64,000 nucleotides of DNA from Escherichia coli. Lineage in GTDB: Bacteria > Pseudomonadota > Gammaproteobacteria > Enterobacterales > Enterobacteriaceae. The notes below the pieces were generated by a model that saw only the letters and a list, made by a program, of their open reading frames with translations, was not told where the DNA came from and did not search any database. The DNA lies in the NCBI RefSeq assembly GCF_016903815.1, contig NZ_CP069972.1, one strand, 5' to 3'. Shown one piece after another: positions 16,191 to 34,906 of the stretch (within the stretch, counting starts at the first letter, position 1; every line of letters begins with the position of its first letter). A program made the translations under genes and the position numbers.

Positions 16191-16523
16191 TCAACCTTCC
16201 ATTAACTGTTTACGCAATGTATTTGTAAGTTCGGTTATGGCAACAAGCACTTCTGCGTATTCCTTGTCACCGGTTCTTTTTCCCTGAACAAACAGATGCT
16301 TCTGCATCCTTCCCAGTCTCATTAACTCCTTCAGAAAAGCATCATCTGTCCGGGAGTTAATTCGCTTATTCAGTGCTGCATTTCGGATGTAAGCAGATAC
16401 AGTAAGTCCGGAATCTTCAGCATTCTTACAGATAGTTTCATCCTCATCCGGTGAGAACCGGACCGCTCTCAGGATCGTCTTTTGCCGTCTTTCACTACCA
16501 CTTCTTTGACGTTTATCACTCAC
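16191..16523 (-). CDS. nikA: oriT-binding relaxosome accessory protein NikA (RHH, 110 aa)
   Basis: GTG start after AAGGAG; 110-aa product VSDKRQRSGSERRQKTILRAVRFSPDEDE... typical RHH Mob accessory protein; precedes nikB. Confidence 0.8.
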   Translation of the reverse strand: MSDKRQRSGSERRQKTILRAVRFSPDEDETICKNAEDSGLTVSAYIRNAALNKRINSRTDDAFLKELMRLGRMQKHLFVQGKRTGDKEYAEVLVAITELTNTLRKQLMEG

Positions 16524-16540: not shown

Positions 16541-16625
16541 GGTGTCGGGGCGAAGCCCTGACCAGGAGGCAATTGTATAATCGCGCGTGCGCGGTTATAC
16601 AATTGCACATCCTGTCCCGTTTTTC
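16541..16625 (+). other. oriT: Origin of transfer (oriT) with predicted nick site
   Basis: Perfect 10-bp inverted repeat AATTGTATAA/TTATACAATT (16571-16604) followed 10 bp later by ATCCTG^T (nick predicted 16614/16615) resembling the IncP nic motif; leading genes then point toward this site. Confidence 0.65.
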
Positions 16626-16755: not shown

Positions 16756-17091
16756 ATGGCGTCTAAAAAATTTTACTCAGATGATGACATCCAGCTGGCA
16801 AAAGCTGCTTTATCGGAATTGCCAGACCTCACCGCTCAACGGAAAACATTGCGTGATTTTCTTGATGCCATTCGTGATGACATCATTATCCTGGTAAGGA
16901 CAAAGGGTTATACACTGACAGATGTTCGTGACACGCTCAAAAATGCAGGATATGAAGTAGGAGAGAAAGCACTTCGTGACATTATTCGGGAAGCAGAATC
17001 GAAAAAACCATCCCGCCGTTCTTCCTCTAAAACAGCACCTAAAAAGACAGACTCAGGCAGGAAAGATGGCATCGATATGAACAACAATTGA
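16756..17091 (+). CDS. Hypothetical protein adjacent to oriT (112 aa)
   Basis: ATG at 16756 after GGAGAGA; basic Ser/Lys-rich C-terminal tail; unusually on the + strand for a leading-region gene. Confidence 0.4.
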   Translation: MASKKFYSDDDIQLAKAALSELPDLTAQRKTLRDFLDAIRDDIIILVRTKGYTLTDVRDTLKNAGYEVGEKALRDIIREAESKKPSRRSSSKTAPKKTDSGRKDGIDMNNN

Positions 17092-17176
17092 TGTGACAAT
17101 GTCACATTGTGTTCTGAGATTATGATGATTACAGAAAAAAAAGCCCCGGCATAAATACCTGGGCTTTTCTGTTTAA

Positions 17177-18025
17177 TCAGACTCGTGGCGGCAATGCACC
17201 AGGATAATGCCGTGCAATAATATCATTCAGTTTTTCAACAAGGTCAGAACGCTTAAAGACAATGTGTACGGTCCCTTTCTGGTAGCCACGCACCGTAAAA
17301 TATTCCCCTTCTAACAGCTTACCGACATTGTCACCGTTCCCGAGAAATTCACCATACTGCGCCCCGATGCTGTTCCTGAAGTCAGGAACGTTGCGCCCCT
17401 CCAGCAGATAAAACGGACGTACCAGGTCATCCAGTGCCTCCCGTCCGCTGCAGTCCAGCGTCACACGCCCGTTACTCCAGCGGTACAGTAGGTTTTCAAT
17501 AATTATTTTCTTACCCAGACGGCAGGGATTATTGGTTCTGTAATCCCATGACAATTTCCGGTAGACATCAATCAGCCCCTGTTCAAACGTCTGCATCTTG
17601 CTGGCATTAAGATGGCGGAATGTTGCCAGTACATTGTCCAGGGTGATTTCAGGACAGGTGTCGCTCATCAGCTGGCTGTTCCACTCATCACGCTGGCATG
17701 AACTCATGAAGGTGTACATGCCCGTATCTGTCATCAGGCGGTCCCAGATTTTCCGGTCGGCAAGACGGGTGATATTCCTTTTCGCTTCTTCCGTCTTATC
17801 CATGCGACGAACGGAATCAGTCACGCAGTCTTCAAACCCGTAAAGAAAAATATCACCTGACGCATCGAGCAGAATCTTGCGCGCTGTCGCCAGGCATTCC
17901 ATCGCCTGCATGAACAGTGCAATACCTTCGTTACGCTGCGCGATGATGCGGTCGATAGCTACAGACGGAATAACATCTGTCGTGCCGGCAGTATTCAGGT
18001 CAGCAGTGGGTAAAGTCTGATTCAT
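17177..18025 (-). CDS. Leading-region protein of unknown function (282 aa), first gene behind repeat copy A
   Basis: ATG at 18025 with SD GGAGA; large hairpin repeat immediately upstream; no recognised motif. Confidence 0.55.
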   Translation of the reverse strand: MNQTLPTADLNTAGTTDVIPSVAIDRIIAQRNEGIALFMQAMECLATARKILLDASGDIFLYGFEDCVTDSVRRMDKTEEAKRNITRLADRKIWDRLMTDTGMYTFMSSCQRDEWNSQLMSDTCPEITLDNVLATFRHLNASKMQTFEQGLIDVYRKLSWDYRTNNPCRLGKKIIIENLLYRWSNGRVTLDCSGREALDDLVRPFYLLEGRNVPDFRNSIGAQYGEFLGNGDNVGKLLEGEYFTVRGYQKGTVHIVFKRSDLVEKLNDIIARHYPGALPPRV

Positions 18026-18075
18026 CACATTGTCTCCTCATCGTCACGACTGCCGGGTCAGCCAGGTCATTTCCC

Positions 18076-18386
18076 GGAGGAGCGAAGCTCCTTCTGCCGT
18101 CCGGGTCTTCGGGGATTTCCCCGCAGTGGACCTTTCCGACGGGGGACGCTCACCACGTCACGGGGCAGTTGTCCGGGGGCAGACGCAAAAGTTTTTGACG
18201 CCTGCGGCAAAAAGTTTTGTGGCTGGTACATCTCTCCCCTGGACGACTGAAACGGGATGTGGTCATGTATGTACCCCCGGAAAGTCCGTCTGCGGAGAAC
18301 AGGCCGCAGTGCGGCGGCAGACAGGCAGAGACAGCTGCGCCATCAGGCGCAGTGGCCTTACACACCGTAAGGTGTGCAGGGAGCGC
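18076..18386 (-). promoter_or_regulatory. Family-1 hairpin repeat, copy A (ssDNA-promoter-like, Frpo/ssi-type)
   Basis: Shares about 300 bp with 21469-21964 and 27812-28310, including inverted arms CCCCGCAGTGGACCTTTCC / GGAAAGTCC(A/G)...GGGG and TTGACGC...GCGGCAAAAAGTTTTGTGG. Confidence 0.6.
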
Positions 18387-18501
18387 CGCATACGGCGCGA
18401 CTGAAGAAAAACGACGGCACAACAATGGCATGTGGTGGTCACTGGCACACCACTCCCGCACAGGTGAAAACAGAGAAAACCGCACGACATTTACAACCAA
18501 A

Positions 18502-18594
18502 AAAAGTGAAATTTCTTCACTTTTTCACGCTTATTTTTCGCGTTGATTTGGTGATTATGATGATAAAATAAAGTGAAATTTTTTCACTTTTTCA
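18502..18594. promoter_or_regulatory. Two palindromic operator-like sites overlapping the promoter of the XRE gene
   Basis: AAAAAGTGAA-N5-TTCACTTTTT (18502-18526) and AAAGTGAA-N6-TTCACTTTTT (about 18570-18594) about 70 bp apart, the second abutting the ATG at 18605. Confidence 0.5.
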
Positions 18595-18604
18595 AAGGTG
18601 TTTT

Positions 18605-18856
18605 ATGACCGGCTGGGAACTGCGAATCTGGCGAAAAAGCATGCTCTGGTCACGCGAAAAAGCGGCCAGAGAATTTGGCGTGACGCAGAGAACATGGCAC
18701 GCCTGGGAAAATGCGGAACAGGTGGACGTCACCGTCTGGAGGACCACCCAGGCACTTTCAGTCCGTGACCTGCTGCCTCACATGCAGGGGATGCGTAAGG
18801 CAGATATCATCAGGCGACTGGAAAATGAACTGGGGGAAACGGCAGGGAATGTGTGA
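18605..18856 (+). CDS. Small XRE/Cro-like HTH regulator (83 aa)
   Basis: HTH-like segment WSREKAAREFGVTQRTWHAWE; preceded by paired palindromes; convergent with the Rpn operon. Confidence 0.5.
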   Translation: MTGWELRIWRKSMLWSREKAAREFGVTQRTWHAWENAEQVDVTVWRTTQALSVRDLLPHMQGMRKADIIRRLENELGETAGNV

Positions 18857-18886
18857 GCGTGATTCACAGCCTGGCTGAATGCCAGG

Positions 18887-19069
18887 CTACTGCTCATCAG
18901 GAAACAGCTTTTTCAGTTCTTCACCGGAAAGTCCCGTGACCTCCTGAATCCGTTCCAGCGGCCAGCCTATATCCCGAAGCCGGCAGGCTATTTCCCGCGC
19001 CACTTCAAGAGCCCCTTGTTTAAAACCCTCGTCGAAACCTTTCTGTATAAGACGTTCTGCAATCGTCAT
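18887..19069 (-). CDS. Stand-alone RpnS-like small protein (60 aa), homolog of the Rpn C-terminal domain
   Basis: MTIAERLIQKGFDEGFKQGALEVAREIACRL...TGLSGEELKK aligns with the last 65 aa of the adjacent Rpn; own SD AGGAG; the longer 81-aa ORF would be encoded through the rpn terminator hairpin. Confidence 0.5.
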   Translation of the reverse strand: MTIAERLIQKGFDEGFKQGALEVAREIACRLRDIGWPLERIQEVTGLSGEELKKLFPDEQ

Positions 19070-19092
19070 GCTGTTTGCTCTGCTCCTGCTGA

Positions 19093-19119
19093 CAAAAAAG
19101 CCCGGCATTTTGCCGGGCT
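19093..19119 (-). terminator. Intrinsic terminator after rpn
   Basis: Minus-strand hairpin AGCCCGGC-loop-GCCGGGCT followed by U6. Confidence 0.5.
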
Positions 19120-19131
19120 TTGTGGTTCTCA

Positions 19132-19329
19132 TCAGTGAGTGATTTTCTTCAGTTCGTCATCGGAAAGTCCGGTAGCCTGCTTAATCTGCTCCGGCGTCAT
19201 CCCCATTTTCTGAAGCTGGCACGCAATAGCCAGGGCTTTTTCAAGCGCTCCTTCCATGCGTCCTTCCATGCGTCCTTCCATCCTGCCTTCCTGGCGACCT
19301 TTTTGCTCAAGACGTTCTGCGATAGTCAT
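19132..19329 (-). CDS. Possible intragenic RpnS-like ORF (in-frame internal start, 65 aa)
   Basis: In-frame ATG at 19329 preceded by GAGGAT at -6 to -11 (CATGAGGATAAACTGATG); product corresponds to the Rpn C-terminal domain. Confidence 0.3.
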   Translation of the reverse strand: MTIAERLEQKGRQEGRMEGRMEGRMEGALEKALAIACQLQKMGMTPEQIKQATGLSDDELKKITH

Positions 19330-20058
19330 CAGTTTATCCTCATGCTGCGGCAGACGCTCAGCCAGCGCCCGCATAAATTCCGGTGATACAGAGTCCCCTG
19401 CGTTAACGATGTAATGAATCAGAACACGCACCTGCTCGTCTGAAATTTCCACCATGACCTGCGGGAGTTTGTCCAGCAGCTCCATCATGTCACGATGGCG
19501 GATATGCTTCATCAGCAGCGTCAGTGCGGCCATCCGGCGATGGTTCATGATTTCATTGTCATCAACGACAGTGATATCAACCAGCGGAAACGGCTTTGTG
19601 TATATTTTAGCCGCAAGTGCCGGATTCTCAAAACAGTCCAGCCAGTTCATGCTGTACGGGTACGGGCTGCGCTCACCGTGATAGAACAGCACCGGAATCA
19701 CCAGTGGCAACGTTTTGTGCTGCTCCAGATGTCTCTGCATCGCCGCCACACTGTAGCGTAACATGCGAAAAGGCATGTACAGATTTTCTGTGCTCTGGTG
19801 CTCGATGAGCGTATAAACATAACCATCTTCACCCCCGGTGGTTTTCACGCTCCAGAGGATATCGCTGGCGTACTGATGCAGGTCCGGCTCAACAAAGGTG
19901 GCGGGTTCCAGCTTCAGCGTGGACAGGTCGCACAACTGCCGGTACTCCGCAGGAAGATGCAGTTCCAGAAAATCCCTGGCAACGTCGGGATTCGCCAGGA
20001 ACGACCGGAACGCGGCATCATGCGGCGTGGGCGTTGTGGTGTTTTTCTTCTTACTCAC
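19132..20058 (-). CDS. Rpn family recombination-promoting nuclease (YhgA-like, PDDEXK), 308 aa
   Basis: YhgA-like N-terminal region (LIEHQS...) and conserved C-terminal domain (IAERLEQKG...TGLSDDELKK); GTG start overlapping the stop of the upstream ORF. Confidence 0.6.
   Translation of the reverse strand: MSKKKNTTTPTPHDAAFRSFLANPDVARDFLELHLPAEYRQLCDLSTLKLEPATFVEPDLHQYASDILWSVKTTGGEDGYVYTLIEHQSTENLYMPFRMLRYSVAAMQRHLEQHKTLPLVIPVLFYHGERSPYPYSMNWLDCFENPALAAKIYTKPFPLVDITVVDDNEIMNHRRMAALTLLMKHIRHRDMMELLDKLPQVMVEISDEQVRVLIHYIVNAGDSVSPEFMRALAERLPQHEDKLMTIAERLEQKGRQEGRMEGRMEGRMEGALEKALAIACQLQKMGMTPEQIKQATGLSDDELKKITH
19249..19284. repeat. 12-bp tandem repeat x3 inside rpn (encodes EGRMEGRMEGRM)
   Basis: TCCTTCCATGCG repeated twice plus variant TCCTTCCATCCT; in frame. 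Confidence 0.6.
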
Positions 20059-20444
20059 GGTTCCTCCATCAAATCAGCAGCATCGCAGCAATCATCGCCC
20101 AAATCCCCACAACCGAGAGGACAGCAATTGCGTTCAAAGCCATGACAACAATAGCCGCGTTCTGAGTCACGGCGTATTTCTTCAGCAATCTCTTCTGCGG
20201 AAAGGTAATCAAACTCCTCACGGGCCAGTTCCAGGACCAGTAGATGTTGTTCTGTCGGCAATGTGGCCACAAAATTATCAATAGCAGCACTCAAACGTCG
20301 CTGATATAGCTCATAAACAAGACCACAACGGGGCATTAGTTCTTCGGATAATAGTTCCAGTTTTGAGCGAATTCTGTCAGCGTTGAAAGTGACTTCATCA
20401 AAAGACATATGAAAAGCTTTGTCAGTATCAAAACAAGACTTCAT
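20055..20444 (-). CDS. Hypothetical protein with Cys-rich acidic C-terminus (129 aa), coupled to rpn
   Basis: ATG at 20444 with SD GGAGA; C-terminal CCHGFERNCCPLGCGDLGDDCCD; stop TGA overlaps rpn GTG start (GTGA). Confidence 0.45.
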   Translation of the reverse strand: MKSCFDTDKAFHMSFDEVTFNADRIRSKLELLSEELMPRCGLVYELYQRRLSAAIDNFVATLPTEQHLLVLELAREEFDYLSAEEIAEEIRRDSERGYCCHGFERNCCPLGCGDLGDDCCDAADLMEEP

Positions 20445-20620
20445 TGTTATCTCCAGCCCTCCCGGGCCCTGAATGAAAGAGAATCTGTTTCCCTTTTCTG
20501 TTTTTTGTGGAGACACCATGCAACACAGACGTCGTGATGTTTTTCATCTTGCTCACGGTTCCTCCTGGTAAAGTACCTGAACACATCCTGCCACCTGCAC
20601 AGGCAGACGGCAGGGGTTAA

Positions 20621-20887
20621 TCAGTGACAGACCCGTTCAATTTCAAGCGCGCGGAGCAGGTGGCCCCATTCGCTGACTTTCATGGCGGGGATACGTACCC
20701 GCTTCTGCTCACTGCAGCGTCTGGCGATATGACCGCCCATCGCCAGGACGTCCGGGTTAATCTCATCCGGTGCCAGTTCCTGGCGTCTGAAGCGGGTATG
20801 GCGGTGCAGGGGTTTGTTCTCCCGCAGGCACTCTTCACGCAGACGCTTTACATACTCGGCGGTTGCGAAGATAATTGATGGTCTCAT
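20621..20887 (-). CDS. Hypothetical leading-region protein (88 aa)
   Basis: ATG at 20887 with GGAG 9 nt upstream; basic protein; no recognised domain. Confidence 0.4.
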   Translation of the reverse strand: MRPSIIFATAEYVKRLREECLRENKPLHRHTRFRRQELAPDEINPDVLAMGGHIARRCSEQKRVRIPAMKVSEWGHLLRALEIERVCH

Positions 20888-20979
20888 GGCATAATCTCCA
20901 TAGTTAGTGAATGAGATGCCGGACTTCCGTACGGGGAAGCGCCAGCGGAGAAAGGCAGGGTTTATCGCCCTGCTTTTTT

Positions 20980-21414
20980 TCATTCCGGACAGCGACGCAG
21001 TGCCAGCGCGAGCGCTTTCATCTTCCAGCCTTCCGGCGTGCGGTACATCACCTTCCAGTAGCCGTCGATGAACACATAATGGAAGCGCACCTCTTCAGTG
21101 CTTTCCGTGGCGATGGCCTCCCTGAAAGAACGGTACTCACGCGCCTCACTGTCCATCCGGAAACCACTGTCACGTCCGTAATAAGCCGTCACACCGTCCA
21201 CCGGGTTCTGAAGCGTATGCCCGGCGGGTTTGTCGCAACGGGGACCGAGGCAACGGATATCACCGTGTTCAACCAGGGCTTCGGCCTGCTGACCGGTGGC
21301 ATAGTGGGTATGCAGGATGCGACCGTTCCAGGTCGGCTCACCGTGCAGGTGGCAGTAAACGGTACGGAACACCCCGTCGCGGCAAAAAACGGAAATCGTG
21401 CTGCTGACTGTCAT
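20980..21414 (-). CDS. Hypothetical leading-region protein (144 aa) behind repeat copy B
   Basis: ATG at 21414 with SD GGAGA; the longer 251-aa ORF in the track reads through the GC-rich repeat and is rejected. Confidence 0.5.
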   Translation of the reverse strand: MTVSSTISVFCRDGVFRTVYCHLHGEPTWNGRILHTHYATGQQAEALVEHGDIRCLGPRCDKPAGHTLQNPVDGVTAYYGRDSGFRMDSEAREYRSFREAIATESTEEVRFHYVFIDGYWKVMYRTPEGWKMKALALALRRCPE

Positions 21415-21468
21415 GAAAACGTCTCCTTCTGCTGAATCAGGTCGCCGGGCCGACCGGTTGCTCCCCCG

Positions 21469-21964
21469 GAGGGGCGAAAGCCCCTTCTGCCGTCCACTTC
21501 TTCGGGGTTTCTCCCCGCAGTGGACCTTTCCGATGGGGCAGCGACTGCCACGGCACGGGGCAGTTGTCCGGGGGCAGACGCAAAAGTTTTTGACGCTTGC
21601 GGCAAAAAGTTTTGTGGCTGGTACATCTCTCCCCTGGACGGCTGAAACGTGTTGTGGCCGCTTCAGCCCCCGGAAAGTCCACAGCGGGGAAACAGGCCGC
21701 AGGGGGGGCGGCGGAAGGGCAGACAACTGCGCCATCAGGCGCAGTTTCCTTACACACCGTCAGGTGTGCAGGGAGCGCAGGTCACGGCGCGACAGAGGCG
21801 GCGCGACCGGAACGGTCGCTGCAAGCCTGGTTTTTCAGACATCGGACCGTAGCGGCAGCCCGAAACCGCGCCAGCGGGTTCGGCGGAGACTGGCGGGTGC
21901 GCCAGCAGCTGCCTGTCGGAGTCGGGCCTGACGACCGGATGCCGCCAGGCAGCCGGGAGCCGAA
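21469..21964 (-). promoter_or_regulatory. Family-1 hairpin repeat, copy B
   Basis: About 500 bp shared with copy C and about 300 bp with copy A; long imperfect inverted repeats. Confidence 0.6.
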
Positions 21965-22146
21965 GGGTGTCCCCGCCCCCGGGAGTCAGAACAACAGAAA
22001 CGACAAAACAGAAAAATGCCTCACACTATGACAGGCAGGAAGGGTAGCGCCGCAGGCGCGGCCCTCCTGTATTTCAGGCAGGCGTAAGCCTGCCAGGGTT
22101 TTCCGGGGGCCTGGCAGGCCATCCCCCCGCCGGAGCGGGGAGTAAA

Positions 22147-22647
22147 TCACCGACGGAACACATGACCGTCAATAAAGGTGAAGGAGTCCAGGAATAAATC
22201 CCGCGCATACGCCTCATAGTCAAAATAGAGCGCCACCGTCTCCGGCACGTCAGCCAGCAGGCCGGTATCACTGACGAACTCAACCGCAAAAGCCTCCTCA
22301 CTGTCAGCCTCGCCCCACCAGGCATCGCGGAAGCTGTCAAAATCCGTCTCACCGGTATCATCCACCCAGAGACGATAAGCCTCTTCGCAGCCTTCATCCC
22401 GCGCCTGGCGGAAGCCTTCAACCCAGGCCCAGTTGATATGGCATTCAGAGGCCATATTCCCCGGGAATCCCTCATAATCCTGAAACATCAGTTCCGGGTC
22501 GGTTTCATCCTGGTGAAGGGCACGGCAGGCGGCGAAAAAGTCGCGTTCATCATCAAACGTTGTCAGGTCAAACCAGCGGCCAGCGATGCTTCCACAGTTG
22601 TATTTGTGCCAGGTTCCAACGTATACAGCAGGTGCAACAACAGACAT
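22147..22647 (-). CDS. ardA: Antirestriction protein ArdA (166 aa)
   Basis: MSVVAPAVYVGTWHKYNCGSIAGRWFDLTTFDDE...; acidic; SD GGAGGA; matches ColIb-P9 ArdA (recollection). Confidence 0.85.
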   Translation of the reverse strand: MSVVAPAVYVGTWHKYNCGSIAGRWFDLTTFDDERDFFAACRALHQDETDPELMFQDYEGFPGNMASECHINWAWVEGFRQARDEGCEEAYRLWVDDTGETDFDSFRDAWWGEADSEEAFAVEFVSDTGLLADVPETVALYFDYEAYARDLFLDSFTFIDGHVFRR

Positions 22648-22659
22648 TCCCGAATCCTC

Positions 22660-22992
22660 CATAGTCACATGTTCTGCGACACCGGGCGGTGCCGTGCCTC
22701 CATCTTTGCCGGGCCTGCAGGGATGCAAGGGCGCAAGGGAAGCCGCAGCCCGACGCACACGGCTGGCGGGAGTTGGAGGGTGAGACCGCGAAATCTGAGC
22801 GGGTGAACGACCGGAAAATCACGGCAGACGGGAAGGAGGGACCGGGTGACCGCAGCGGTTCATCTTACCTTGCATCCCGCCCGCAGAAGCCCGGCTACGA
22901 TGGAGGCACGGCACAGCCCGCACACGACACGGCGGCCACATAACTGAAAACCCACAAGGCCATGCCCCGCATGGCCGGGTAAAAGCGGAGCC
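22660..22992 (-). promoter_or_regulatory. Family-2 hairpin repeat, copy 1 (upstream of ardA)
   Basis: About 330 bp nearly identical to 31955-32286; about 45-nt inverted arms (GTGCCGTGCCTCCATC...GATGGAGGCACGGCAC) separated by about 150 nt. Confidence 0.6.
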
Positions 22993-23108
22993 GGCGGCGA
23001 CGTCCTTATTCCGGCGAGAGCAGGGAGCACACCGCATGATCTCCAGACCACCCCTGGAACGAAACGATCATGACCGGCATGTCCCTGCGTAAAATATACA
23101 TGCCTGGT

Positions 23109-23705
23109 TCACCGGAGAATATCTGTGATATCCACAAGTTTTCTGTCGCGCAGCCAGTCCTGCGCTTCACGCACCACACAACTGTCCGGTTTCACCGCTT
23201 TCAGCGATGATGCCAGTCGCTTGATCAACATCACCAGTTCCCGTGTCTGTATGTCCGGCATTGTCTCCGGCGGAGCAGGGGGACTCTCATTTCCGACGCT
23301 CATCCCATGCGCTTCCAGTGTGGCACGGACAAACCAGGCGGCATCGACCAGTTGCTGTCCAATCCAGGCCAGATCGGCATTTCTGTCACGGGCTGCCATT
23401 CGCTCGCCCGACAGCGCCTTGCTGATATGGCTGCGCACCAGATTATCCAGGAGTGCCTGCGCTTCTTCCGGTGAAAAGCCACCTGGTATCTCTGTGCGCA
23501 ACAGCCCTTTCCTGTACAGAAGCTGCAGCAGATCAACCTGCGACCGCACAGCAACTATCAGTACATAACGGACAACATTCGCACTGGCAGTGGTTTCTGT
23601 ATCATTCAGCAGTTCTTCCGGATCGTTCCCCCCGGTGTTGCAGAGCAACGGCAACAGAGGTCGCATCCACGCGGGAACCTGGTATTTTTCGTCTGATTTC
23701 ATCAT
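23109..23705 (-). CDS. Hypothetical protein (198 aa), translationally coupled to psiA
   Basis: ATG at 23705 overlaps psiA stop (ATGATGA); SD GGAGAA; no recognised domain. Confidence 0.5.
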   Translation of the reverse strand: MMKSDEKYQVPAWMRPLLPLLCNTGGNDPEELLNDTETTASANVVRYVLIVAVRSQVDLLQLLYRKGLLRTEIPGGFSPEEAQALLDNLVRSHISKALSGERMAARDRNADLAWIGQQLVDAAWFVRATLEAHGMSVGNESPPAPPETMPDIQTRELVMLIKRLASSLKAVKPDSCVVREAQDWLRDRKLVDITDILR

Positions 23706-24421
23706 ATTACGTTCTCCAGCTTGTTCGGGATCATCCACTGCTCAAGTGCACGTACCTGTACCGGTGCACCACGACCGGCCTCACCGGCTTCAAAAATCAG
23801 CCGCCAGAGTGGTTCCTCCTGCCAGAAAAACCGGTCAAATGATGACAGTGATGGAAAACGCCCGCACCACCCCCAGAAAATCGTTTCCAGATCATGCTCC
23901 TCAACAACACCAGACCAGCGGGACAACCAGCTTCCGACCGTGGCGGGAGTATGAAACGCAAGGTCAATCTGCGCCTGAGCAAAACATGTCTGGTATTCCA
24001 GTTCCCGTCGTTCTGCCTCACGTTCCCGCTGGCGGCTGTATTTCTGCTCTGTCAGCGTGGTTTTCTGACGACGACGCTCACCTTCACGAAAAGGCACGGA
24101 CGGGAACAGACGGTGCCCCGCATCGGATGGCAGGGGAAGAACACAGACTTCCCCAAAACTTTCAATCAGTTTATCCACGGCAGCCAGCCACAGGAGACGG
24201 TTGCCATGAAATTCCTCCTTCGTCAGCGCAGGGGCAAAAAAGCGGAGATCGGTCAGCGAAATCCGGCGACTGCCATTCAGGCAGCGAAAGAAAGCGGTGG
24301 CATAAGGCCATGCTGAAAGTGTGCGTCCCTGACGACGACGTTGTTCTGTGACAGCCACCGCCTGCATGGCGGCCTGTTGTTCTGCGCTGAGGGGGATCAG
24401 TGCCCGTGAACGTGCGCTCAT
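23702..24421 (-). CDS. psiA: Plasmid SOS inhibition protein PsiA (239 aa)
   Basis: [53 protein letters not shown]...; ATGA overlap with psiB stop. Confidence 0.85.
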
Positions 24422-24852
24422 GCCTGACCTCCTTCTGCCATCAGGATATGGATGATGTCGTTAACACTGTATCCCTGCGCATCCAGTGTCGCGGCAAGCG
24501 CCAGCGTGTGACTGATCGCGACAGGCGTGAAGATATGTTGCACCTGAACGACGGCGAAAGGCTGTCCACCACCATTCACCAGAACCAGCATCCAGAGCTG
24601 AGAGACGTCTCCCGGCGAACATAATGCCAGGTGGAAACGTTCGTGGGCTGGCGTGAAACGAACCTGGACGGGGAAAAAGCCCCCGAACTCACTGCCATAC
24701 TCTCCGTTCATCACCCAGTTAGCCGGTGCGTCCACTTCACGCATCACCTCGTGAGTGAGATTACGGCGCATATCGCTTCCCGCAGCACGGATATCTTCAT
24801 ATTCCTGTGCGTTCATGGACTGCAGGGCATTCAGGGTCAGTTCAGTTTTCAT
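24418..24852 (-). CDS. psiB: Plasmid SOS inhibition protein PsiB (144 aa)
   Basis: [40 protein letters not shown]...; SD AGGGAG. Confidence 0.9.
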
Positions 24853-24906
24853 CACGGTATCTCCCTTGCTGCCGCCCCGTCTCCGGCGGGGCGGTGTGGT
24901 TGTTCA

Positions 24907-26865
24907 TCAGGCGGCATCAGCCAGGTTAGCGGTGTGTTCAGTGGCATCCGTCTGTGGACGTGGTGCACACATCCAGCCAGGCACCCAGCGGTTGTCTTTC
25001 ATATGGAACTCTGCATGTTCAGCCGCATCGCCTTTCTTCATTTTCTCCGCGTCCCGTGCGGCACCGGACAGTCCGGCCTCATTCAGGGCTGCGATAATCT
25101 GCGGCTTTTTCAGGTGTCCGAAGAAGTTTGCTTTTGTCGGCTGCCACCAGTCGCGCATGTGAAAGCCGATGGCGGTTTCCAGCGAGTCCAGCGGACTGCG
25201 TGACGTGTGACCACACTCGCGGGTCTGGACACCGTTAAGACTGCACGCGGTACAGAAACTGAGCAGGGATAACAGCACCTCCTGGCTAAGTGACAGGAAC
25301 GTCGTCATATCCCGTTCCCATCCTTCCGGCAGCAGGGCAGCAAAACGAGAGTGTTCTGCCATCAGCGCCATGAATGCGGCACCTTCCTTCCCTGACGGTG
25401 CATCGCTGGTCAGCGCATAATGCTCACATTCCAGGCGAATTCTGGCGGGACTACTATGCGCTTTGCTGTCAAACACATTCAGGCAGAGCGTCCATGCCAG
25501 CAGTGCCAGGGATTTGTCCGGTTGCTGCATCAGTGCTGCCTGGACTGCCAGCGTGCGCTCTGAGGTCAATTTAGTCAGCAACGGCAGACTAATTTCCTCC
25601 ACTGACGCGCTCTCCAGCCCCTGTTCCGTGCGGTCAGCGTCGTCAGCCACATCATCCTCACTGCGCAACTGCACACCACGCTGGATACACACATTACCGT
25701 AACGCCAGGACACCACCACGCCACTTCCGGCACGCATCTCCGGCGTCCACGCCCTGACCTTCGCCATGCAGTCAATCAGCTTCATTTCTGCTGCCAGCAG
25801 GTCAGATTCCTCACACTGGTTTTCCAGCGAGTCGTAACGAGCCATCAGTTCGTTCAGACGTTCGTCTTCCGCCTCCGTCAGCACCGCTTCCGGCTCCGGC
25901 AGGTTGCGGTATGCCCGGGCATCTTCACGGCACTCACCGACAGGCTCCATGCGTCCGGCGCACCATTCCCAGCCTTCGGCTTCCCGAAGGAACTCTGCGA
26001 CAGCCTGGAGTTTTTCCAGCAGGGCGGCATCGAGCGCCACGCGGTCGACATAACCGTCCCCGTCATCGCTGAACAAATCGGTGCGCAGTTCGTCTGGCGA
26101 GAAGGCATCAGCCCCCACGAAGCGGAATTTACTGTTCCCCGCCACCGCCACTTCACTTTCGGTCACCAGACGACGAATGGTCTGTACTTCCGGTTTACCG
26201 CCCCATCCCGACTGGCAGGCGGCTTCAAACACCTGCACCTGACGCGCGGTGTCGTTCTCCAGCGCCAGCGCCTGACAGTGCTCTGTGGTGATGCGGTCTT
26301 CTGCCAGCGCATCGAGGATAACCGGAGCAAGGTCTGCCAGTTTCAGCATTCGCTGAACGTGGCGGGGTGAATAGCCCAGCAAATCACCGATTTGTGCAGG
26401 CGTTTTGCCTTCCTGCGCCATTGCGCGGAATCCGGCAATCTGTTCGGCAGGGTGCATATCCCGACGCTGACCGTTCTCGGTCATCGATGCGGCAGTCGCC
26501 AGCTCCTGCGGAATGACCTTCACGCGTACAGGCCAGTCAGCCGGAAGGATGTTGCGCTCTGCCAGCATGTTGAGTGCTGCCAGTCGGCGACCGCCTGCGG
26601 CGACAGCGTAACGGTCACCAGGCAGGGTATGCACGACCAGATTCTGCAGCAGTCCGACGCCCTTAATGGACTCCGCCAGTTCGCTGACGGACTCCGCAGA
26701 ATACGGCACCGTGCGCACATTCAGCGGTGATTTAATCAGCGAGGCCAGCGGCACGCTCACTTCCTCCGTCTGCGCCAGCAGGGCAGACAGGACAGTTTCC
26801 TGCGTTTTTACAGATTTACGGCTTGCTTTGCGGGTGGTTTCTGGTTCACACTTCGTTACAGGCAT
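24907..26865 (-). CDS. ParB-like nuclease domain protein of the leading region (about 652 aa)
   Basis: N-terminal ParB/Sulfiredoxin-like region (…VVHTLPGDRYAVAAGGRRLAAL…) plus long C-terminal extension; upstream of psiB. Confidence 0.65.
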   Translation of the reverse strand: MPVTKCEPETTRKASRKSVKTQETVLSALLAQTEEVSVPLASLIKSPLNVRTVPYSAESVSELAESIKGVGLLQNLVVHTLPGDRYAVAAGGRRLAALNMLAERNILPADWPVRVKVIPQELATAASMTENGQRRDMHPAEQIAGFRAMAQEGKTPAQIGDLLGYSPRHVQRMLKLADLAPVILDALAEDRITTEHCQALALENDTARQVQVFEAACQSGWGGKPEVQTIRRLVTESEVAVAGNSKFRFVGADAFSPDELRTDLFSDDGDGYVDRVALDAALLEKLQAVAEFLREAEGWEWCAGRMEPVGECREDARAYRNLPEPEAVLTEAEDERLNELMARYDSLENQCEESDLLAAEMKLIDCMAKVRAWTPEMRAGSGVVVSWRYGNVCIQRGVQLRSEDDVADDADRTEQGLESASVEEISLPLLTKLTSERTLAVQAALMQQPDKSLALLAWTLCLNVFDSKAHSSPARIRLECEHYALTSDAPSGKEGAAFMALMAEHSRFAALLPEGWERDMTTFLSLSQEVLLSLLSFCTACSLNGVQTRECGHTSRSPLDSLETAIGFHMRDWWQPTKANFFGHLKKPQIIAALNEAGLSGAARDAEKMKKGDAAEHAEFHMKDNRWVPGWMCAPRPQTDATEHTANLADAA

Positions 26866-26923
26866 AATCATCCCCTTATAATTGCTTATGTCCTGCCGGA
26901 CGTTCGCGCGTCCGGCACCTCTC

Positions 26924-27157
26924 TTACTTAAGAATCCCGAAATCCCTGATGTACTGGTTCATCCAGTACCCGGCACAGTCCTCAAAATTCCAGGAGCGCC
27001 AGATCAACGTGCCATCCTGACGGACAACCAGGCGAAAATGCGTTCCCTGATCATCCTCGATAAAGACGTTCCGGTACTGTGCGGCAACGGCTTCCGCCTG
27101 TTCGCGGGTAAAGGAGCCGTCCGGCAGTCCCTGAAGTATTCTGAAATATTCGCTCAT
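26924..27157 (-). CDS. Small hypothetical leading-region protein (77 aa)
   Basis: ATG at 27157 with GGAG 8 nt upstream; between ssb and the ParB-like gene. Confidence 0.45.
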
Positions 27158-27214
27158 CCTCATATCTCCGGTGATGCCCCGCACAGGGCGGGGCGGTTGT
27201 CACAGTCAGCCCGA

Positions 27215-27742
27215 TCAGAACGGGATGTCGTCTGAAAACCCGTAATCCTCCCCCTCCGGCGGTTGCGGCTGAGGCTCTGGCTGCGCGGCCTTACGTCCAC
27301 GGCCTTTCGTTTTCGCGCCACCTTTTTTCGTCGCGTCAGCACTCTGTGGCTGCCCATTCTGCTGAGGCTTCGGTTGCGCCTGAGCGTTCTGCTGTGGTGC
27401 ACGTCCCAGCATCTGCACGGTGCCCGTGGTCTTAACAAGAATTTCAGTGACGTAACGGGTGATACCGTTATCTTCCCAGCTACGGGTGCGAAGCTGACCT
27501 TCGATGTAGACCTGCGCACCCTTGCGCAGATATTCACCTGCCACTTCCGCGAGCTTGCCGAACAGCACCACGCGGTGCCATTCCGTCTGCTCCCGCATCT
27601 CCCCCGTCTGTTTGTCACGCCAGCTTTCTGATGTGGCCACCTGCAGGTTTGCCACTGCGCCCCCGTTGGGGATGTAACGGACTTCCGGATCATTGCCCAG
27701 ACGCCCGACGAGGATGACCTTGTTGATACCACGTGCACTCAT
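27215..27742 (-). CDS. ssb: Plasmid single-stranded DNA-binding protein (175 aa)
   Basis: [48 protein letters not shown]...; Gly/Pro/Gln-rich linker and acidic DDIPF tail; SD AGGAGG. Confidence 0.9.
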
Positions 27743-27811
27743 AAGAACCTCCTGACTGAAAGATGTGAGATAAACCGGATACCGGCGACGGGACGTTCAT
27801 GTGCCCCTTCA

Positions 27812-28310
27812 GAGGAGCGAAAGCTCCTCCTGCCGTCCACTTCACAGGGGTTTCTCCCCGCAGTGGACCTTTCCGATGGGGGCCCGTTTACCGCCTCACG
27901 GGGCAGCTGTCCGGGGGCGGACGCAAAATTTTTTGCCGGGTTCATGGCTAAAAATTTTGTGGCCGGTGCATCTCACCCTGGACAGATGGAACGGGAGGGG
28001 GTTACGTCTGCCCCCCGGAAAGTCCACAGCGGGGAAACAGGCCGCAGGGGGGGCGGCAGGAGGGAGGACTGCTGCGCCATCAGGCGCAGTTTCCTCACAC
28101 ACCGTCAGGTGTGCAGGGAGCGCAGGTCACGGCGCGACAGGGGCGGCGCGACCGGAACGGTCGCTGCAAGCCCGGGTTTTCACGCATCGGACCGTAGCGG
28201 CAGCCCGAAACCGCGCCAGCGGGTTCGGCGGAGACTGGCGGGTGCGCCAGCAGCTGCCCGTCGGAGTCGGGCCTGACGACCGGATGCCGCCAGGCAGCCG
28301 GGAGCCGAAG
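27812..28310 (-). promoter_or_regulatory. Family-1 hairpin repeat, copy C (upstream of ssb)
   Basis: Near-identical to copy B over about 500 bp; homology ends at about 28310, right where the group II intron begins. Confidence 0.6.
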
Positions 28311-28316
28311 TGGGCG

Positions 28317-30650
28317 GTGCGACAGGAAGTCGCTTAACGTATTGTTTTACATTGATAAAACCAGCTATCCCATTAGCTGTAGCCTACCGGGACAGGCGTT
28401 GCCGGCAACGGCGGGGTCTGAAGCTCCCGGGACAACGAGAGCCGGGCGTCAGCCCGGGTAATGCCCCGTGAGGGGCTTTACCTTGCTGCAAGCATCATGC
28501 GGCAGGAGAGCAAGGCTGGTCAGAAGGGTTAACACATGTGAACTGTTGATAAACACCGTTATCGGCAACAGGCCAAAGATGCTGACAGGCCTGAACCAAA
28601 AGGTACGGGGTCCGGTTGCTACCTCGCGCACAGGGAGCACATGGGCGCAGAGACCCCCGGTGAAGAGACAGAACCCGCCCTGACCCTCTGTATGTTAAGC
28701 GGAACCTGGTAAACCCGTATCGCTGCCTCACAGGCAGGTGAACCGCAAGGAACACTGTTAGCGGTGCGGGCATAGGAGGACGGAAAAAGCGAATGCCCGG
28801 CTGTAATAACCGGGATACGGGGCAGGTTCCCCGACGCGAAAGCGGGCAGACTTCCGTCTGGTCTTTAATTGCATGAAAAGCTGTAAAGCAGTCAAAAGGA
28901 TATCAGCGAGATGAATACACACATCAGTGTGTCCACGATACCCCACCCGACAGGCTGGCACACCATAAACTGGAAAGCATGCCATGCCCGGGTGCGAAAG
29001 CTACAGTTACGGATTGCAAAGGCAACCCGACAGCAACAATGGCGGCAGGTCAGAGAACTACAGCGCATCCTCACCCGCTCATTCTCCGGCAAAGCCGTGG
29101 CTGTCAGGCGTGTAACTGAAAATACCGGTAAAAGGACACCCGGTATTGACGGAAAAATATGGCACACACCGAAGGAGAAATGGGAAGGAATATGCAGCCT
29201 GAATCTGTGTGGTTACAGGCCACAGCCACTACGGCGAATACATATCCCAAAATCAAACGGCAAAACGCGACCGCTGGGCATACCCACAATGAGGGACCGG
29301 GCCATGCAGGCACTGTGGCTGCTGGCTCTGGAACCCGTATCCGAGACCACTGCTGACCATAACAGCTATGGTTTCAGACCAATGCGCAGCACGCATGACG
29401 CCATTGAGTCCATTTTTCTGCGGATGAGCCAGAAAGTATCGCCCAAATGGATACTGGAGGGCGATATTAAAGGGTGCTTCGATAACATCAGCCATGACTG
29501 GCTGCTTTCCCATATTCCGATGGACAGGAGACTGCTTAAAAAATGGTTGAAAGCAGGTTACATGGAAAGAGGCGTGTTTAACCATACGAACAGCGGGACA
29601 CCGCAGGGAGGCATCATATCCCCTGTTCTCGCCAACATGGCTCTGGACGGACTGGAGAAGGAACTGATGCAAACGTTCAGGAAAAGTGGTTATCACAGTG
29701 CAAAGCACCAGGTGAATTATGTGAGATATGCTGATGATTTCATCTGTTCAGGCAGCTCCCGTGAATTGCTGGAAAATGAGGTCAGACCACTGATTGCAGC
29801 TTTCATGCGCGAACGAGGGCTGGAACTGTCGGAAGAAAAAACAGCGATCACACATATAGATAAAGGCTTCGACTTTTTAGGGCAGAACGTCAGGAAGTAC
29901 AACGGTAAAATGCTGATTAAACCGTCGAAGAAAAACCTGAAGAACTTCCTCTGTAAAGTCAGAGAAATAATTAAACGCAATCCGACGCTCCCGGCATGGA
30001 AACTGATAGGCCAGCTAAACCCGGTGATCCGGGGATGGGCTACCTATCACCGACACGTCGTGGCGAAAGAAACATTTAATTATGTCGACACCCAAATCTG
30101 GCGAGCTATATGGCGATGGTGTGTAAGACGGCATCCCCGGAAAGGATTGCGGTGGATCGCCGGACGATACTTCTCCTTTGAAGGCAGGCGCTGGATCTTT
30201 AAAGCCATAACCCCGGAAGGGAAAATTCTGACACTCTTCCGGGCAATGGAAACACCGATAAAGCGCCATATAAAAATCAAAGGCGAAGCAACACCATACA
30301 CCCCCGGAATGGAAATCTACTTTGAACGTCGTCTGGATCTAATCTGGAAAGGCAAATCAAAGAAGATGAAGACAGTAGTTCAACTCTGGAAGAGGCAGGG
30401 GAAACACTGTCCGCAGTGCGGACAACTCATAACCAACCAGACCGGATGGAATATACATCACCGGATCAGGAAAGTTATGGGCGGCAGTGACGAACTGACC
30501 AATCTCGAGTTGTTACATCCGAACTGCCACCGACAGTTACACAGCAGGGAAGCCGGTGCTCACCGAAAGCACTTATAAAGGCTTGAGCGGAGTGCGGGGA
30601 AACTCGCACGCTCCGTTCTTAGGGGGCGGCGGCGCAGCAATGTGCCGCTG
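28317..30650 (+). mobile_element. Group II intron (about 2.3 kb) with intron-encoded RT/maturase/HNH protein
   Basis: 5' GTGCG at 28317; about 590 nt of upstream structured RNA; ORF in domain IV; domain V hairpin GAGCGGAGTGCGGGGAAACTCGCACGCTCCGTTC at 30585-30618; 3' end approximate. Confidence 0.75.
28911..30578 (+). CDS. Group II intron-encoded protein: reverse transcriptase, maturase, HNH endonuclease (555 aa)
   Basis: RT motifs (GIDG, YADD) and C-terminal Cys/His HNH segment (CPQCGQ...HHRIRKVMGGSD...HPNCH). Confidence 0.85.
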   Translation: MNTHISVSTIPHPTGWHTINWKACHARVRKLQLRIAKATRQQQWRQVRELQRILTRSFSGKAVAVRRVTENTGKRTPGIDGKIWHTPKEKWEGICSLNLCGYRPQPLRRIHIPKSNGKTRPLGIPTMRDRAMQALWLLALEPVSETTADHNSYGFRPMRSTHDAIESIFLRMSQKVSPKWILEGDIKGCFDNISHDWLLSHIPMDRRLLKKWLKAGYMERGVFNHTNSGTPQGGIISPVLANMALDGLEKELMQTFRKSGYHSAKHQVNYVRYADDFICSGSSRELLENEVRPLIAAFMRERGLELSEEKTAITHIDKGFDFLGQNVRKYNGKMLIKPSKKNLKNFLCKVREIIKRNPTLPAWKLIGQLNPVIRGWATYHRHVVAKETFNYVDTQIWRAIWRWCVRRHPRKGLRWIAGRYFSFEGRRWIFKAITPEGKILTLFRAMETPIKRHIKIKGEATPYTPGMEIYFERRLDLIWKGKSKKMKTVVQLWKRQGKHCPQCGQLITNQTGWNIHHRIRKVMGGSDELTNLELLHPNCHRQLHSREAGAHRKHL

Positions 30651-30856
30651 CTACCCGACCAATAAAAGACAGCCAGAAACGGTGACAGTGTCACGGAATA
30701 TCACACCTGTTCCCTGCATACAGCCATACACTACCTTCTGACCGGAAAGCCGGGCCGGCAGCGCCGCAGGCGCTGCACCCCGCGTTTCCGGCAGGCGTCA
30801 GCCTGCCAGGGGTTTTCGCGCGGGCTGACAGGCGGCCTCCACCGCCTGCCCCTGTA

Positions 30857-31939: not shown

Positions 31940-31954
31940 GATGTTTTCCTCCGT

Positions 31955-32286: not shown

Positions 32287-32354
32287 CGGCGACATCCTTT
32301 TGCTCTTTCCGGGGACCGGCTGGAAAAGGCGGAGATTTTTCCCCGCCAGCGTCA

Positions 32355-34900: not shown

Positions 34901-34906
34901 CATACT

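Follow-up and report, generated by a model that had tools for sequence, protein, structure and literature searches.

Three hairpin repeats in the leading region of an IncI-type plasmid are very probably ssi/Frpo promoters, and two of them adjoin a separate structured module

Introduction

The elements ssi1, ssi2 and ssi3 of plasmid ColIb-P9 are said to have been described by Bates et al. in 1999, and Frpo1 (ssiD) of the F plasmid reportedly goes back to Masai and Arai in 1997. In the F plasmid, deletion of Frpo1 or Frpo2 abolishes the early expression of downstream proteins (PMC9849209). Plasmid pESBL carries six ssDNA promoters with start sites determined by 5' RACE and with early, transconjugant-specific induction; its ssi1-3 belong to class 1 and are the strongest (PMC12672017). 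The same three repeats that are analysed here are also known from reports on other plasmids of the IncI family (PMC3817090; PMC10104558). By means of ssDNA promoters, SSB, SOS inhibitors, anti-restriction proteins and methylases are expressed before the recipient can attack the plasmid, which makes these promoters central to the spread of resistance plasmids.

Here, we analysed a window of 64,000 nucleotides of Escherichia coli DNA (NZ_CP069972.1), for which an earlier note based on the letters alone had proposed three hairpin-forming, Frpo/ssi-like repeats upstream of leading-region genes. The three repeats are very probably ssi1, ssi2 and ssi3, class 1 ssDNA promoters of the Frpo family on a conjugative plasmid of the IncI-gamma/IncI1 type. 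Apart from an attached structured module, they are already described and ordinary for the IncI family. The window shows the published IncI arrangement of class 1, 2 and 3 hairpins in a well-preserved form and reveals no new principle.

Results

An IncI/IncP-type nick motif, ATCCTG|T, was found on the + strand at 16609-16614|16615, 3' of the oriT inverted repeat (Table 1). The predicted nick, positioned according to this motif, lies between 16614 and 16615; it reportedly falls 8 nt from the oriT repeat, according to Furuya and Komano (1991). The + strand, which bears the motif, is therefore the one transferred, and what lies to the right of oriT enters the recipient first. All leading genes are encoded on the minus strand, so that the transferred strand is their template and, as previously claimed, they read toward oriT. 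Copies 1, 2 and 3 of the repeat are located 1.5, 4.9 and 11.2 kb to the right of the nick motif. Each lies upstream of a minus-strand gene (the 282-aa gene, the 144-aa gene and ssb, respectively) with the start codon 50-67 nt away (50 nt for copy 1), which agrees with the proposed location immediately 5' of these genes. Besides the genes listed in Table 1, the operon of copy 2 contains two small hypothetical proteins and an 81-aa protein, and the operon of copy 3 contains DUF905, psiB, psiA and a 198-aa protein. An 'ssi3 operon' with the same genes as the latter has been described (PMC10104558). Hairpins of other classes in the window are associated with ardA and klcA (class 2) and with a DNA methylase (class 3).

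Table 1 Features of the oriT and leading region in the window. The positions refer to the whole 64,000-nt stretch; gene assignments to a copy are predicted.
Feature	Position	Strand	Remarks
nikB	13481-16180	-	left of oriT, next to nikA
nikA	16191-16523	-	immediately left of oriT
oriT core	16569-16615	+	17/18-bp inverted repeat (arms 16569-16586 and 16589-16606), then nick motif
DUF4942 protein, 282 aa, served by copy 1	17177-18025	-	first minus-strand gene after oriT on the incoming strand
Copy 1, equivalent of ssi1 / ColIb-P9 'Frpo1', class 1 ssDNA promoter	18075-18403	+	99.1% over 329/329 nt to AJ238399:1459-1787; main hairpin 18093-18321
Operon served by copy 2	18887-21414	-	annotation
Rpn-family nuclease-like protein, copy 2 operon	19132-20058	-	
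Hypothetical protein, 144 aa, copy 2 operon	20980-21414	-	
Copy 2, equivalent of ssi2, mosaic	21467-21795	+	identity in 40-nt bins; main hairpin 21486-21723
Extension of copy 2, separate conserved structured module	21796-21966	+	hairpin A 21803-21819, junction core 21840-21966
Operon served by copy 3	23109-27742	-	annotation
ParB-like protein, copy 3 operon	24907-26865	-	
ssb, copy 3 operon	27215-27742	-	
Copy 3, equivalent of ssi3 / ColIb-P9 'Frpo3'	27809-28140	+	98.5% over 331 nt to AJ238399:11381-11711; main hairpin 27826-28063
Extension of copy 3, same module	28141-28311	+	97% identical to that of copy 2; hairpin A 28148-28164, core 28185-28311

A repeat search of the window recovered several three-copy families, for example D3 (76 nt, 84-88% identity), and the families D6-D8 contain the inverted arms CCCCGCAGTGGACCTTTCC and GGAAAGTCCACAGCGGGG that had been quoted before. 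The hairpin-forming repeats are thus real, and they fold far beyond shuffled sequences (see below). Measured against the published references, the three homologous cores each comprise about 330 nt. The first repeat is present within its initially claimed bounds of 18076-18386, which are slightly short at the 3' end, since the core extends to 18403. Repeats are likewise present at 21469-21964 and 27812-28310, but copies 2 and 3 are composite: each interval consists of a core of about 330 nt and a separate, shared module of about 170 nt. The repeat search also detected a 299-nt block with 96% identity that is common to copies 2 and 3 only. The core sequence TTGACGC...GGCAAAAAGTTTTGTGG given in the earlier note occurs in copies 1 and 2, while copy 3 has TTTGCC...GGCTAAAAATTTTGTGG instead.

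Comparison with the published sequences by blastn revealed full-length identities to Frpo1, Frpo2 and Frpo3 of ColIb-P9 of 99.1%, 86.7% and 98.5%. The lowest value belongs to copy 2, which is a mosaic: in 40-nt bins, its positions 1-40 match ssi2, 81-160 match ssi1, and 201-240 as well as 281-329 match ssi3. This shows block exchange among the three promoters by gene conversion.

The open reading frames on the + strand within the repeats, considered artefacts in the earlier note, showed no NCBIfam match and are unannotated in p866 and pESBL. Their frames are not kept between the copies because the repeat offsets differ (6343 versus 6345, and 3392-3395). All of this supports their dismissal.

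Folding of the transferred strand as ssDNA produced a stable long hairpin in all three copies, with z-scores between -9.1 and -10.2. Free energies on the + and minus strand were -100.8 and -82.2 kcal/mol for copy 1 (z -9.34 on the + strand), -107.1 and -90.3 kcal/mol for copy 2 (z -9.08) and -105.4 and -87.1 kcal/mol for copy 3 (z -10.17), and none of 100 shuffled sequences folded as well. In copy 1, the main hairpin is accompanied by a GGAGCGAAGCTCC mini-hairpin at its 5' foot and by three small G+C-rich hairpins on the 3' side. In a sliding scan with 300-nt segments, no other + strand structure of the leading region was as stable as those of the three copies (-88 to -99 kcal/mol; background mean -47.7, sd 13.7 kcal/mol). 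The + strand folds better than its complement by 15-18 kcal/mol owing to G·T pairs, of which it forms 6-7 compared to 1-3 on the other strand. Many stem G·T pairs also occur among the relatives; in mRNA or on the opposite strand, they would become C·A mismatches. The argument for strand specificity relies on the G·T pairs and the energy difference only, as the palindrome folds in RNA and in the complement, too.

The main stem of the copies is supported by covariation. In an alignment with IncI, IncF, Serratia and Salmonella relatives, 89.5% of the cells were paired versus 50-59% when the partners were slid, and 12 pairs had changed on both sides versus 3-8 with slid partners.

A consensus scan detected no canonical -35/-10 pair in the IncI-type copies, and a simple duplex scan found no conventional sigma-70 promoter between element and gene for any of the three. 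Candidates for the -35 and -10 bases were ranked with rough, approximate position-weight matrices, supplemented by drawings of one arm against the other. In the IncI copies, this ranking pointed to TGGAC(G/A), 17 nt and then TCATGT or TTACGT on the 3' arm, or alternatively to TTGTGG, 17 nt and TGGACG. The best sigma-70 match of F ssiD is on the 5' arm (TTGAGA, 17 nt, CATACT) and has no counterpart in the IncI copies. As the arm favoured by the ranking is not the same in F and in the IncI copies, these weak and conflicting matches are regarded as candidates only.

A cmscan of positions 16000-38000 (E<=1) detected no Rfam family in or near the repeats and chance-level matches elsewhere. The sole real match in this region was a group II intron (28361-28510 and 30583-30659).

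The extension that follows copies 2 and 3 is, judging from covariation, a separate structured unit. Its closing helix, TC[A/G]GACC with GG[G]C[T/C]GA, encloses a conserved hairpin, CCCGAAACC...GGGTTCGG. This is followed by an invariant CGGAG and a variable hairpin, and the 3' part has two further invariant stretches, GACGAC and GAGCCG(A/G)AGG, with a second variable hairpin between them. In copy 2, the junction core ends in GAGCCGAAGG. The module was found in IncI plasmids, in IncF plasmids of E. coli and Klebsiella, in IncL/M (pOXA-48-like) plasmids, in pADAP and in an F-like plasmid of Pantoea, which had about 10 blastn matches to it (9 were used in the alignment); overall, it is present in many thousands of plasmids. 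Its orientation is fixed on the transferred strand. Usually it is located just 3' of an ssDNA promoter hairpin of any class, and it is found in the absence of such a hairpin, too. The module is conserved to about 95% between IncI and IncF, compared to about 75% for the promoter hairpins. No Rfam family matches the module, and neither a description of it nor a published leading-region model containing it was found in the literature.

It is possible, though rather unlikely, that this extension of about 125-170 nt is an independent functional element of the leading region that has so far escaped description. It may be speculated that it could provide a site for priming or primosome loading when the complementary strand is synthesised discontinuously, that it could act as an insulator or stop signal where operons transcribed from ssDNA adjoin, or that it could bind a protein. 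Several other candidate identities were rejected. Strings similar to CUGANGA and GAAA resemble a hammerhead ribozyme, but the GAA takes part in base pairs that covary, and no Rfam family matches. The CTG of a DnaG start site is interrupted in 5 of 14 copies, a T-run characteristic of an intrinsic terminator follows hairpin A only in the E. coli version, a search for related ssDNA phage origins returned only chance matches in the phage collection, and blastn found no match to F ssiE in the window.

C-G-N-A-G motifs are linked to hyper-stable DNA mini-hairpins of the d(GCGAAGC) type. Within the elements, 23 such motifs were counted on the + strand and 7 on the minus strand, compared to 87 and 93 across the leading region. 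This enrichment is suggestive only, because the elements are G-rich on the + strand.

Discussion

The interpretation of the repeats as Frpo/ssi-like ssDNA promoters is supported by homology, position, strand polarity, the strand-specific hairpin on the + strand and stem covariation, all of which were observed here. Start sites, activity in single-stranded form only and a transient, rifampicin-sensitive expression after transfer would correspond to what the literature reports for near-identical pESBL elements and, as regards the activity and the expression, for F. What speaks against this interpretation is that no canonical -35/-10 pair is recognisable in the IncI-type copies, and that the mosaic copy 2, a putative promoter, has a rearranged stem and a poor -10 candidate.

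According to the model that we propose, the relaxase would nick the + strand at oriT (at about 16614|16615) and the strand would enter the recipient with its 5' end first, so that the region to the right of oriT would arrive first and single-stranded. Each imperfect palindrome of about 230 nt could then snap back into a long, mismatched hairpin and serve as a duplex promoter for the host's sigma-70 RNA polymerase. Before a complementary strand exists, transcription would proceed leftwards along the incoming strand and cover the DUF4942 gene from copy 1, the 144-aa/Rpn operon from copy 2 and the ssb-parB-like-psiB-psiA operon from copy 3. Once the complementary strand is made, the hairpin would be drawn out into ordinary duplex and the promoter switched off. 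As a result, the genes would be expressed only briefly once transfer has occurred (zygotic induction), and the transcripts may in addition prime complementary-strand synthesis.

This last step could also be the main one. If the elements were mainly priming signals in the original sense of ssi, RNA polymerase would lay down a primer for complementary-strand synthesis and gene expression would be secondary, which seems to us quite possible though not probable. Frpo was originally isolated as the single-strand initiation signal ssiD, and the RNA made on it primes DNA synthesis in vitro (PMC7690428). According to a 2026 preprint, early conversion events downstream of the F equivalents are sensitive to rifampicin (10.64898/2026.01.09.698686). 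Nevertheless, priming complements the promoter function rather than excluding it, since one transcript can do both, and two observations speak against priming as the main role: each copy precedes a ribosome-binding site and a gene by 50-67 nt, and deletion of the F homologues abolishes downstream protein expression.

We consider it very improbable that the repeats act at the RNA level, as a structured 5' leader, an inter-operon terminator or a stabiliser in a minus-sense mRNA made from ordinary duplex promoters. Any DNA palindrome folds in its transcript as well, and the copies do lie between co-directional operons. However, the fold in the mRNA sense is weaker by 15-18 kcal/mol, the conserved G·T pairs of the + strand turn into C·A mismatches there, and the scans revealed neither a duplex promoter nor an intrinsic terminator nor a matching Rfam family. 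Mobile or selfish elements (REP/BIME-like, MITE or IS remnants) and functionless recombination scars would explain dispersed repeats that recombine, such as the mosaic copy 2 with sequence from all three, and another plasmid has lost a 9.7-kb leading region by recombination between such repeats (PMC3817090). Yet, a transposase, a target duplication and a terminal-repeat architecture are all missing, and at the loci examined, position and orientation are fixed, always upstream of co-oriented leading genes. Moreover, 12,490 of the 12,634 occurrences in complete E. coli genomes (99%) are on plasmids, which speaks against an IS or REP element, a correspondence that the earlier note had named as a refuting condition. 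The stem covaries across distant plasmid groups, a sign of selection on the structure; we regard this last explanation, mobile or scar, as extremely improbable.

Like ssi/Frpo, the sso of rolling-circle plasmids is folded ssDNA that is recognised by the host RNA polymerase and active on one strand (compared in PMC7690428), but it directs the synthesis of a short lagging-strand primer and not of an mRNA, and no relationship in sequence was found. Frpo1 (ssiD) and Frpo2 of F (Couturier et al. 2023) are elements of the same kind as those in the window: long imperfect hairpins that form in the transferred strand and precede co-oriented leading genes, ssb and psiB among them. F and the window have an apical core in common, GTCCGGGGG...GCAAAA-TTTTTG / GCAAAAAGTTTTG(T/C)GG...CCCCTGGAC. 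The identity between ssiD and the copies is 74-76% and limited to the central 80-136 nt, with lower stems that are unrelated in sequence.

ColIb-P9 (IncI1; listed as 'ColIb P-9 Frpo1-3', AJ238399, Samuel et al. 2024) likewise has three copies whose order from oriT is the same, and its ssb/psiB operon is under ssi3 as in the window. The published units of 326-331 nt stop short of the 170-nt module by which copies 2 and 3 are followed in the window. In copy 2, unlike in ColIb-P9, the apical sequence of about 110 nt is replaced by ssi1-type and other blocks by ssi3-type sequence.

The same plasmid type as the window (IncI-gamma/K1 by MOB-suite) is represented by pESBL from E. coli O104:H4 (PMC12672017). 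In an alignment, the mosaic ssi2 of the window differs from that of pESBL in the same apical stretch of about 110 nt, and the group II intron just beyond the ssi3 module is located where pESBL appears to have an uninterrupted junction. Otherwise, pESBL-EA11 has the leading-region gene order of the window and the extension module in the same places; ssi1 and ssi3 are nearly identical (about 3 and 4 differences from copies 1 and 3, respectively), and the companion hairpins of class 2 (ardA, klcA) and class 3 (DNA methylase) are present in both.

Plasmid context and polarity of the leading region

In database sequence comparisons, thousands of enterobacterial plasmids match the 12-kb region around the repeats, and p866 of Shigella sonnei, an IncI-gamma/K1, MOBP, MPF_I plasmid by typing, is 100% identical to it over positions 17000-28317. 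On the + strand, the oriT inverted repeat is followed by CACATCCTG/TCCC, which we take to be a nick region of IncI/IncP type; the nick reportedly lies 8 nt from the inverted repeat (Furuya & Komano 1991). With the nick on the + strand and the relaxase on its 5' end, it is the + strand that is transferred, and DNA right of 16615 enters first. Rightward follow, all on the minus strand, ardA (~5.5 kb), psiB/psiA (~7-8 kb) and ssb (~10.6 kb), the gene order known from classical IncI1 leading regions. The leading genes thus have the transferred strand as their template, as the earlier note had proposed.

Features of the oriT-proximal and leading regions (copies 1-3, the three repeats; module, the extension beyond copies 2 and 3)
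Feature	Position	Strand	Remarks
nikB (relaxase gene)	13481-16180	-	
nikA	16191-16523	-	
oriT inverted repeat	16569-16586, 16589-16606		directly right of nikA/nikB
DUF4942 protein gene	17177-18025	-	start codon 50 nt from copy 1
ORFs inside the repeats	18030-18404, 21398-21931, 27801-28337	+	antisense to every leading gene
Copies 1, 2, 3 (cores)	18075-18403, 21467-21795, 27809-28140		
Foot mini-hairpins	18078-18092, 21470-21485, 27814-27825		GCGAAGC (copy 1), GCGAAAGC (copies 2 and 3)
Outer pairs of main hairpin	18093/18321, 21486/21723, 27826/28063	+	copies 1, 2, 3
Candidate hexamers TGGAC(G/A)	18240-18245, 27979-27984		copies 1, 3
Candidate hexamers TCATGT or TTACGT	18263-18268, 28002-28007		copies 1, 3
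A/T-rich palindrome AAAGTGAAATTTCTTCACTTT, two copies	18499-18594		between copy 1 and regulator gene
Divergent helix-turn-helix regulator gene	18605-18856	+	
Rpn-family recombination-promoting nuclease / transposase-like gene	19132-20058	-	operon under copy 2
144-aa protein gene	20980-21414	-	start codon 53 nt from copy 2
Modules	21796-21966, 28141-28311		multi-helix junction; unpaired invariant CGGAG, GACGAC, GAGCCGAAGG
ardA	22147-22647	-	
Class 2-type hairpin	22667-23008		upstream of ardA
ssb	27215-27742	-	start codon 67 nt from copy 3
Group II intron	28318-30659	+	5' GTGCGAC, 3' ...CTACCCGAC
Reverse transcriptase ORF	28911-30578		555 aa; in group II intron
klcA-like anti-restriction gene	31514-31939		
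Class 2-type hairpin	31947-32299		upstream of klcA-like gene
DNA methylase gene	33840-34523		
Strong hairpin	~34540-34840		-93 kcal/mol in 300-nt window; directly upstream of methylase gene
DUF1281 gene	34907-35878		
Weaker structured stretch	~35830-36130		-72 kcal/mol; upstream of DUF1281 gene

Identity of the three repeats

A repeat search recovered the three copies reported in the earlier note, each 5' of a minus-strand gene as described there. We compared them with published Frpo/ssi elements (Supplementary file 4 of Samuel et al. 2024). Copy 1 is 99.1% identical to ColIb-P9 'Frpo1' across its full 329 nt and copy 3 is 98.5% identical to 'Frpo3', while copy 2 shares 86.7% identity with 'Frpo2' and 85.5% with 'Frpo1'. 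The match to the F plasmid prototype ssiD is confined to the central 80-136 nt (74-76% identity). Copies 2 and 3 run on for ~170 nt beyond the core (to 21965 and 28310), an extension that copy 1 lacks and that explains the lengths of 300-500 bp first assigned to the repeats.

Analysis of copy 2 in 40-nt bins revealed a patchwork of blocks resembling the published elements ssi1-ssi3: the first 40 nt are 100% ssi2-type, positions 81-160 are 95-97% ssi1-type, and positions 201-240 and 281-329 are 97-100% ssi3-type. By contrast, ssi2 is 'pure' in pESBL and ColIb-P9, and that of pESBL keeps the ColIb-type apex. Gene conversion evidently swaps blocks among the three promoters; elsewhere, the whole leading region has been lost through recombination between such repeats (PMC3817090). 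In the ORF list, the 144-aa gene is lengthened in frame beyond its start and across the copy 2 hairpin (20980-21735, minus strand, 251 aa); the annotated start at 21414, which has a ribosome-binding site, is the credible one.

The + strand ORFs inside the repeats are called as 'hypothetical proteins' in some automated annotations. We regard them as artefacts, in agreement with the earlier note, since they are antisense to the leading genes, none of the three has an NCBIfam match, they are unannotated in p866 and pESBL, and indels of 1-2 nt disrupt their frames from copy to copy. The alternative of a REP or IS element is rejected: a 499-nt query consisting of copy 2 and its extension matched complete E. 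coli genomes at 12,634 places (3,760 of 5,426 genomes), of which 12,490 are plasmid-borne.

Folding and covariation of the transferred strand

Single-stranded DNA folding yielded the expected long, stable hairpin in all three copies. The + strand of each core forms an imperfect hairpin of ~230 nt, with a mini-hairpin at its gene-proximal foot and three small G+C-rich hairpins distally (-100.8, -107.1 and -105.4 kcal/mol for copies 1, 2 and 3; z-scores -9.3, -9.1 and -10.2). In a 300-nt sliding fold scan from oriT to 42 kb, the copies ranked highest in + strand stability (-88 to -99 kcal/mol versus a mean of -47.7, sd 13.7). The fold of the complementary strand is weaker by 15-18 kcal/mol and contains 1-3 G·T pairs, compared to 6-7 on the + strand.

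We then aligned ten elements (the three copies, ColIb-P9 Frpo2, F ssiD, two IncF elements from one Klebsiella plasmid, one from Serratia and two from Salmonella). Consensus stem cells were paired in 89.5% of cases, compared to 50-59% when the 3' partners were slid by 1-3 columns, and 12 pairs showed changes on both sides versus 3-8 in the slid controls. Several stem positions are mostly G·T; in the mRNA or on the complementary strand, these would read as C·A mismatches. Covariation and G·T pairs therefore indicate that the hairpin structure is selected on the transferred strand. The foot sequences GCGAAGC and GCGAAAGC are those of DNA mini-hairpins with exceptional stability. Within the elements, the + strand is enriched in C-G-N-A-G motifs (23 versus 7), but not over the whole leading region (87 versus 93).

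A consensus scan detected no conventional duplex sigma-70 promoter between copy and gene for any of the three copies, which is in line with dependence on the folded form. Read down the 3' arm starting at the apex, the family-conserved apical core comprises an A/T-rich tract (AAAAAGTTTT), TTGTGG, a conserved 10-nt bulge (GTnCATnT...) and CCCCTGGAC. One weak candidate promoter on this arm consists of TGGAC(G/A), a 17-nt spacer and TCATGT or TTACGT, the second hexamer of which sits in an internal loop; a weak alternative is TTGTGG, 17 nt, TGGACG. In F ssiD, the only good match (TTGAGA, 17 nt, CATACT) lies on the 5' arm and points toward the apex, whereas the IncI-type candidates lie on the 3' arm. 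Minus-sense mRNA is the result of either promoter orientation.

Further hairpins and neighbouring features

Two more hairpins, upstream of ardA and the klcA-like gene, share 94.6% identity with one another and ~79% with the 'Frpo' 4' candidate; they fold at about -93 kcal/mol as + strand ssDNA and correspond to published class 2 single-strand promoters. The hairpin upstream of the DNA methylase gene, an M.EcoGIX homologue, occupies the place of the published class 3 promoter. Related plasmids carry a hypothetical annotation for an ORF (34599-34943) that this hairpin overlaps. The stretch upstream of the DUF1281 gene contains a short match (35952-36025) to the published low-certainty candidate 'Frpo* 1' and may represent a seventh single-strand promoter.

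Beside copy 1, the AAAGTGAAATTTCTTCACTTT palindromes, in whose region a promoter-like site lies on the minus strand (18587-18560), are probably operators of the helix-turn-helix regulator. The Rpn-family gene is a surprising passenger among genes expressed at once on entry.

A separate module beside ssi2 and ssi3

The extension of copies 2 and 3 is a module separate from the promoter hairpin. At ≥95% identity it is present in at least 5,000 plasmid records of IncF and IncI type, with up to five places per record, and between IncF and IncI the modules are ~95% alike while the promoter hairpins are only ~75% alike. A query taken from a published 'Frpo*' candidate retrieved a diverged module in 4,715 further records (Klebsiella IncFII(K), IncL/M pOXA-48-like, Enterobacter, Serratia, Pantoea). 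In every locus examined, across IncI, IncF, IncL/M, pADAP and Pantoea plasmids, its orientation relative to the leading genes is the same. A Pantoea F-like plasmid carries ~10 copies between oriT and umuD (blastn), most of them directly after a promoter-type hairpin of ~290 nt that belongs to another class. One lies 148 nt from a gene, which is too close to fit a hairpin of this kind; another comes after the end of an operon and is followed by no co-directional gene, and one has no co-directional operon upstream. Copy 1 adjoins the divergently transcribed regulator gene instead of a module.

Fourteen aligned modules share one architecture, in which a closing helix and a conserved hairpin come before invariant CGGAG, one variable hairpin separates this from invariant GACGAC, and a second separates GACGAC from invariant GAGCCG(A/G)AGG. 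Over 19 alignable pairs, 98.9% of cells were paired (≤55% in slid controls), and nine pairs had changes on both sides (0-1 in controls). We found no Rfam family for the module and no description of it in the searchable literature; the ~460-nt 'R' repeats of PMC3817090 evidently included it.

The insertion point of the group II intron, which runs antisense to the leading genes, is 7 nt past the end of the ssi3 module; in p866 the site is empty (GCCGAAGTGGGCG/CAATAAAAG). IncF plasmid pKPC2_040035 carries the same intron (~9180), likewise 7 nt from this module, although the 7 nt preceding the junction are different there. The module may be the homing signal of the intron.

Comparison with known single-strand promoters

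Frpo is a stem-loop of the F leading region that serves RNA polymerase as a promoter on single-stranded DNA, with homologues in ColIb-P9 (PMC9849209; PMC7690428), and 'three operons, transcribed by ssi3-1' are described in IncI-gamma ESBL plasmids (PMC10104558). Early induction in pESBL covers six leading-region operons, each with an upstream hairpin and a start site found by 5' RACE; three of the hairpins are ssi1-3, named class 1 and the strongest (PMC12672017). pESBL-EA11 has the same replicon type and gene order as our plasmid, and only a few bases distinguish its ssi1 from copy 1 and its ssi3 from copy 3. The reading of the three repeats as single-strand promoters of ssi1-3 type is supported by this near-identity and gene order. 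The proposal of the earlier note was therefore right, and the elements were already known: the repeats are a textbook-grade, previously published trait of the IncI-type plasmid family, and the module alone merits follow-up.
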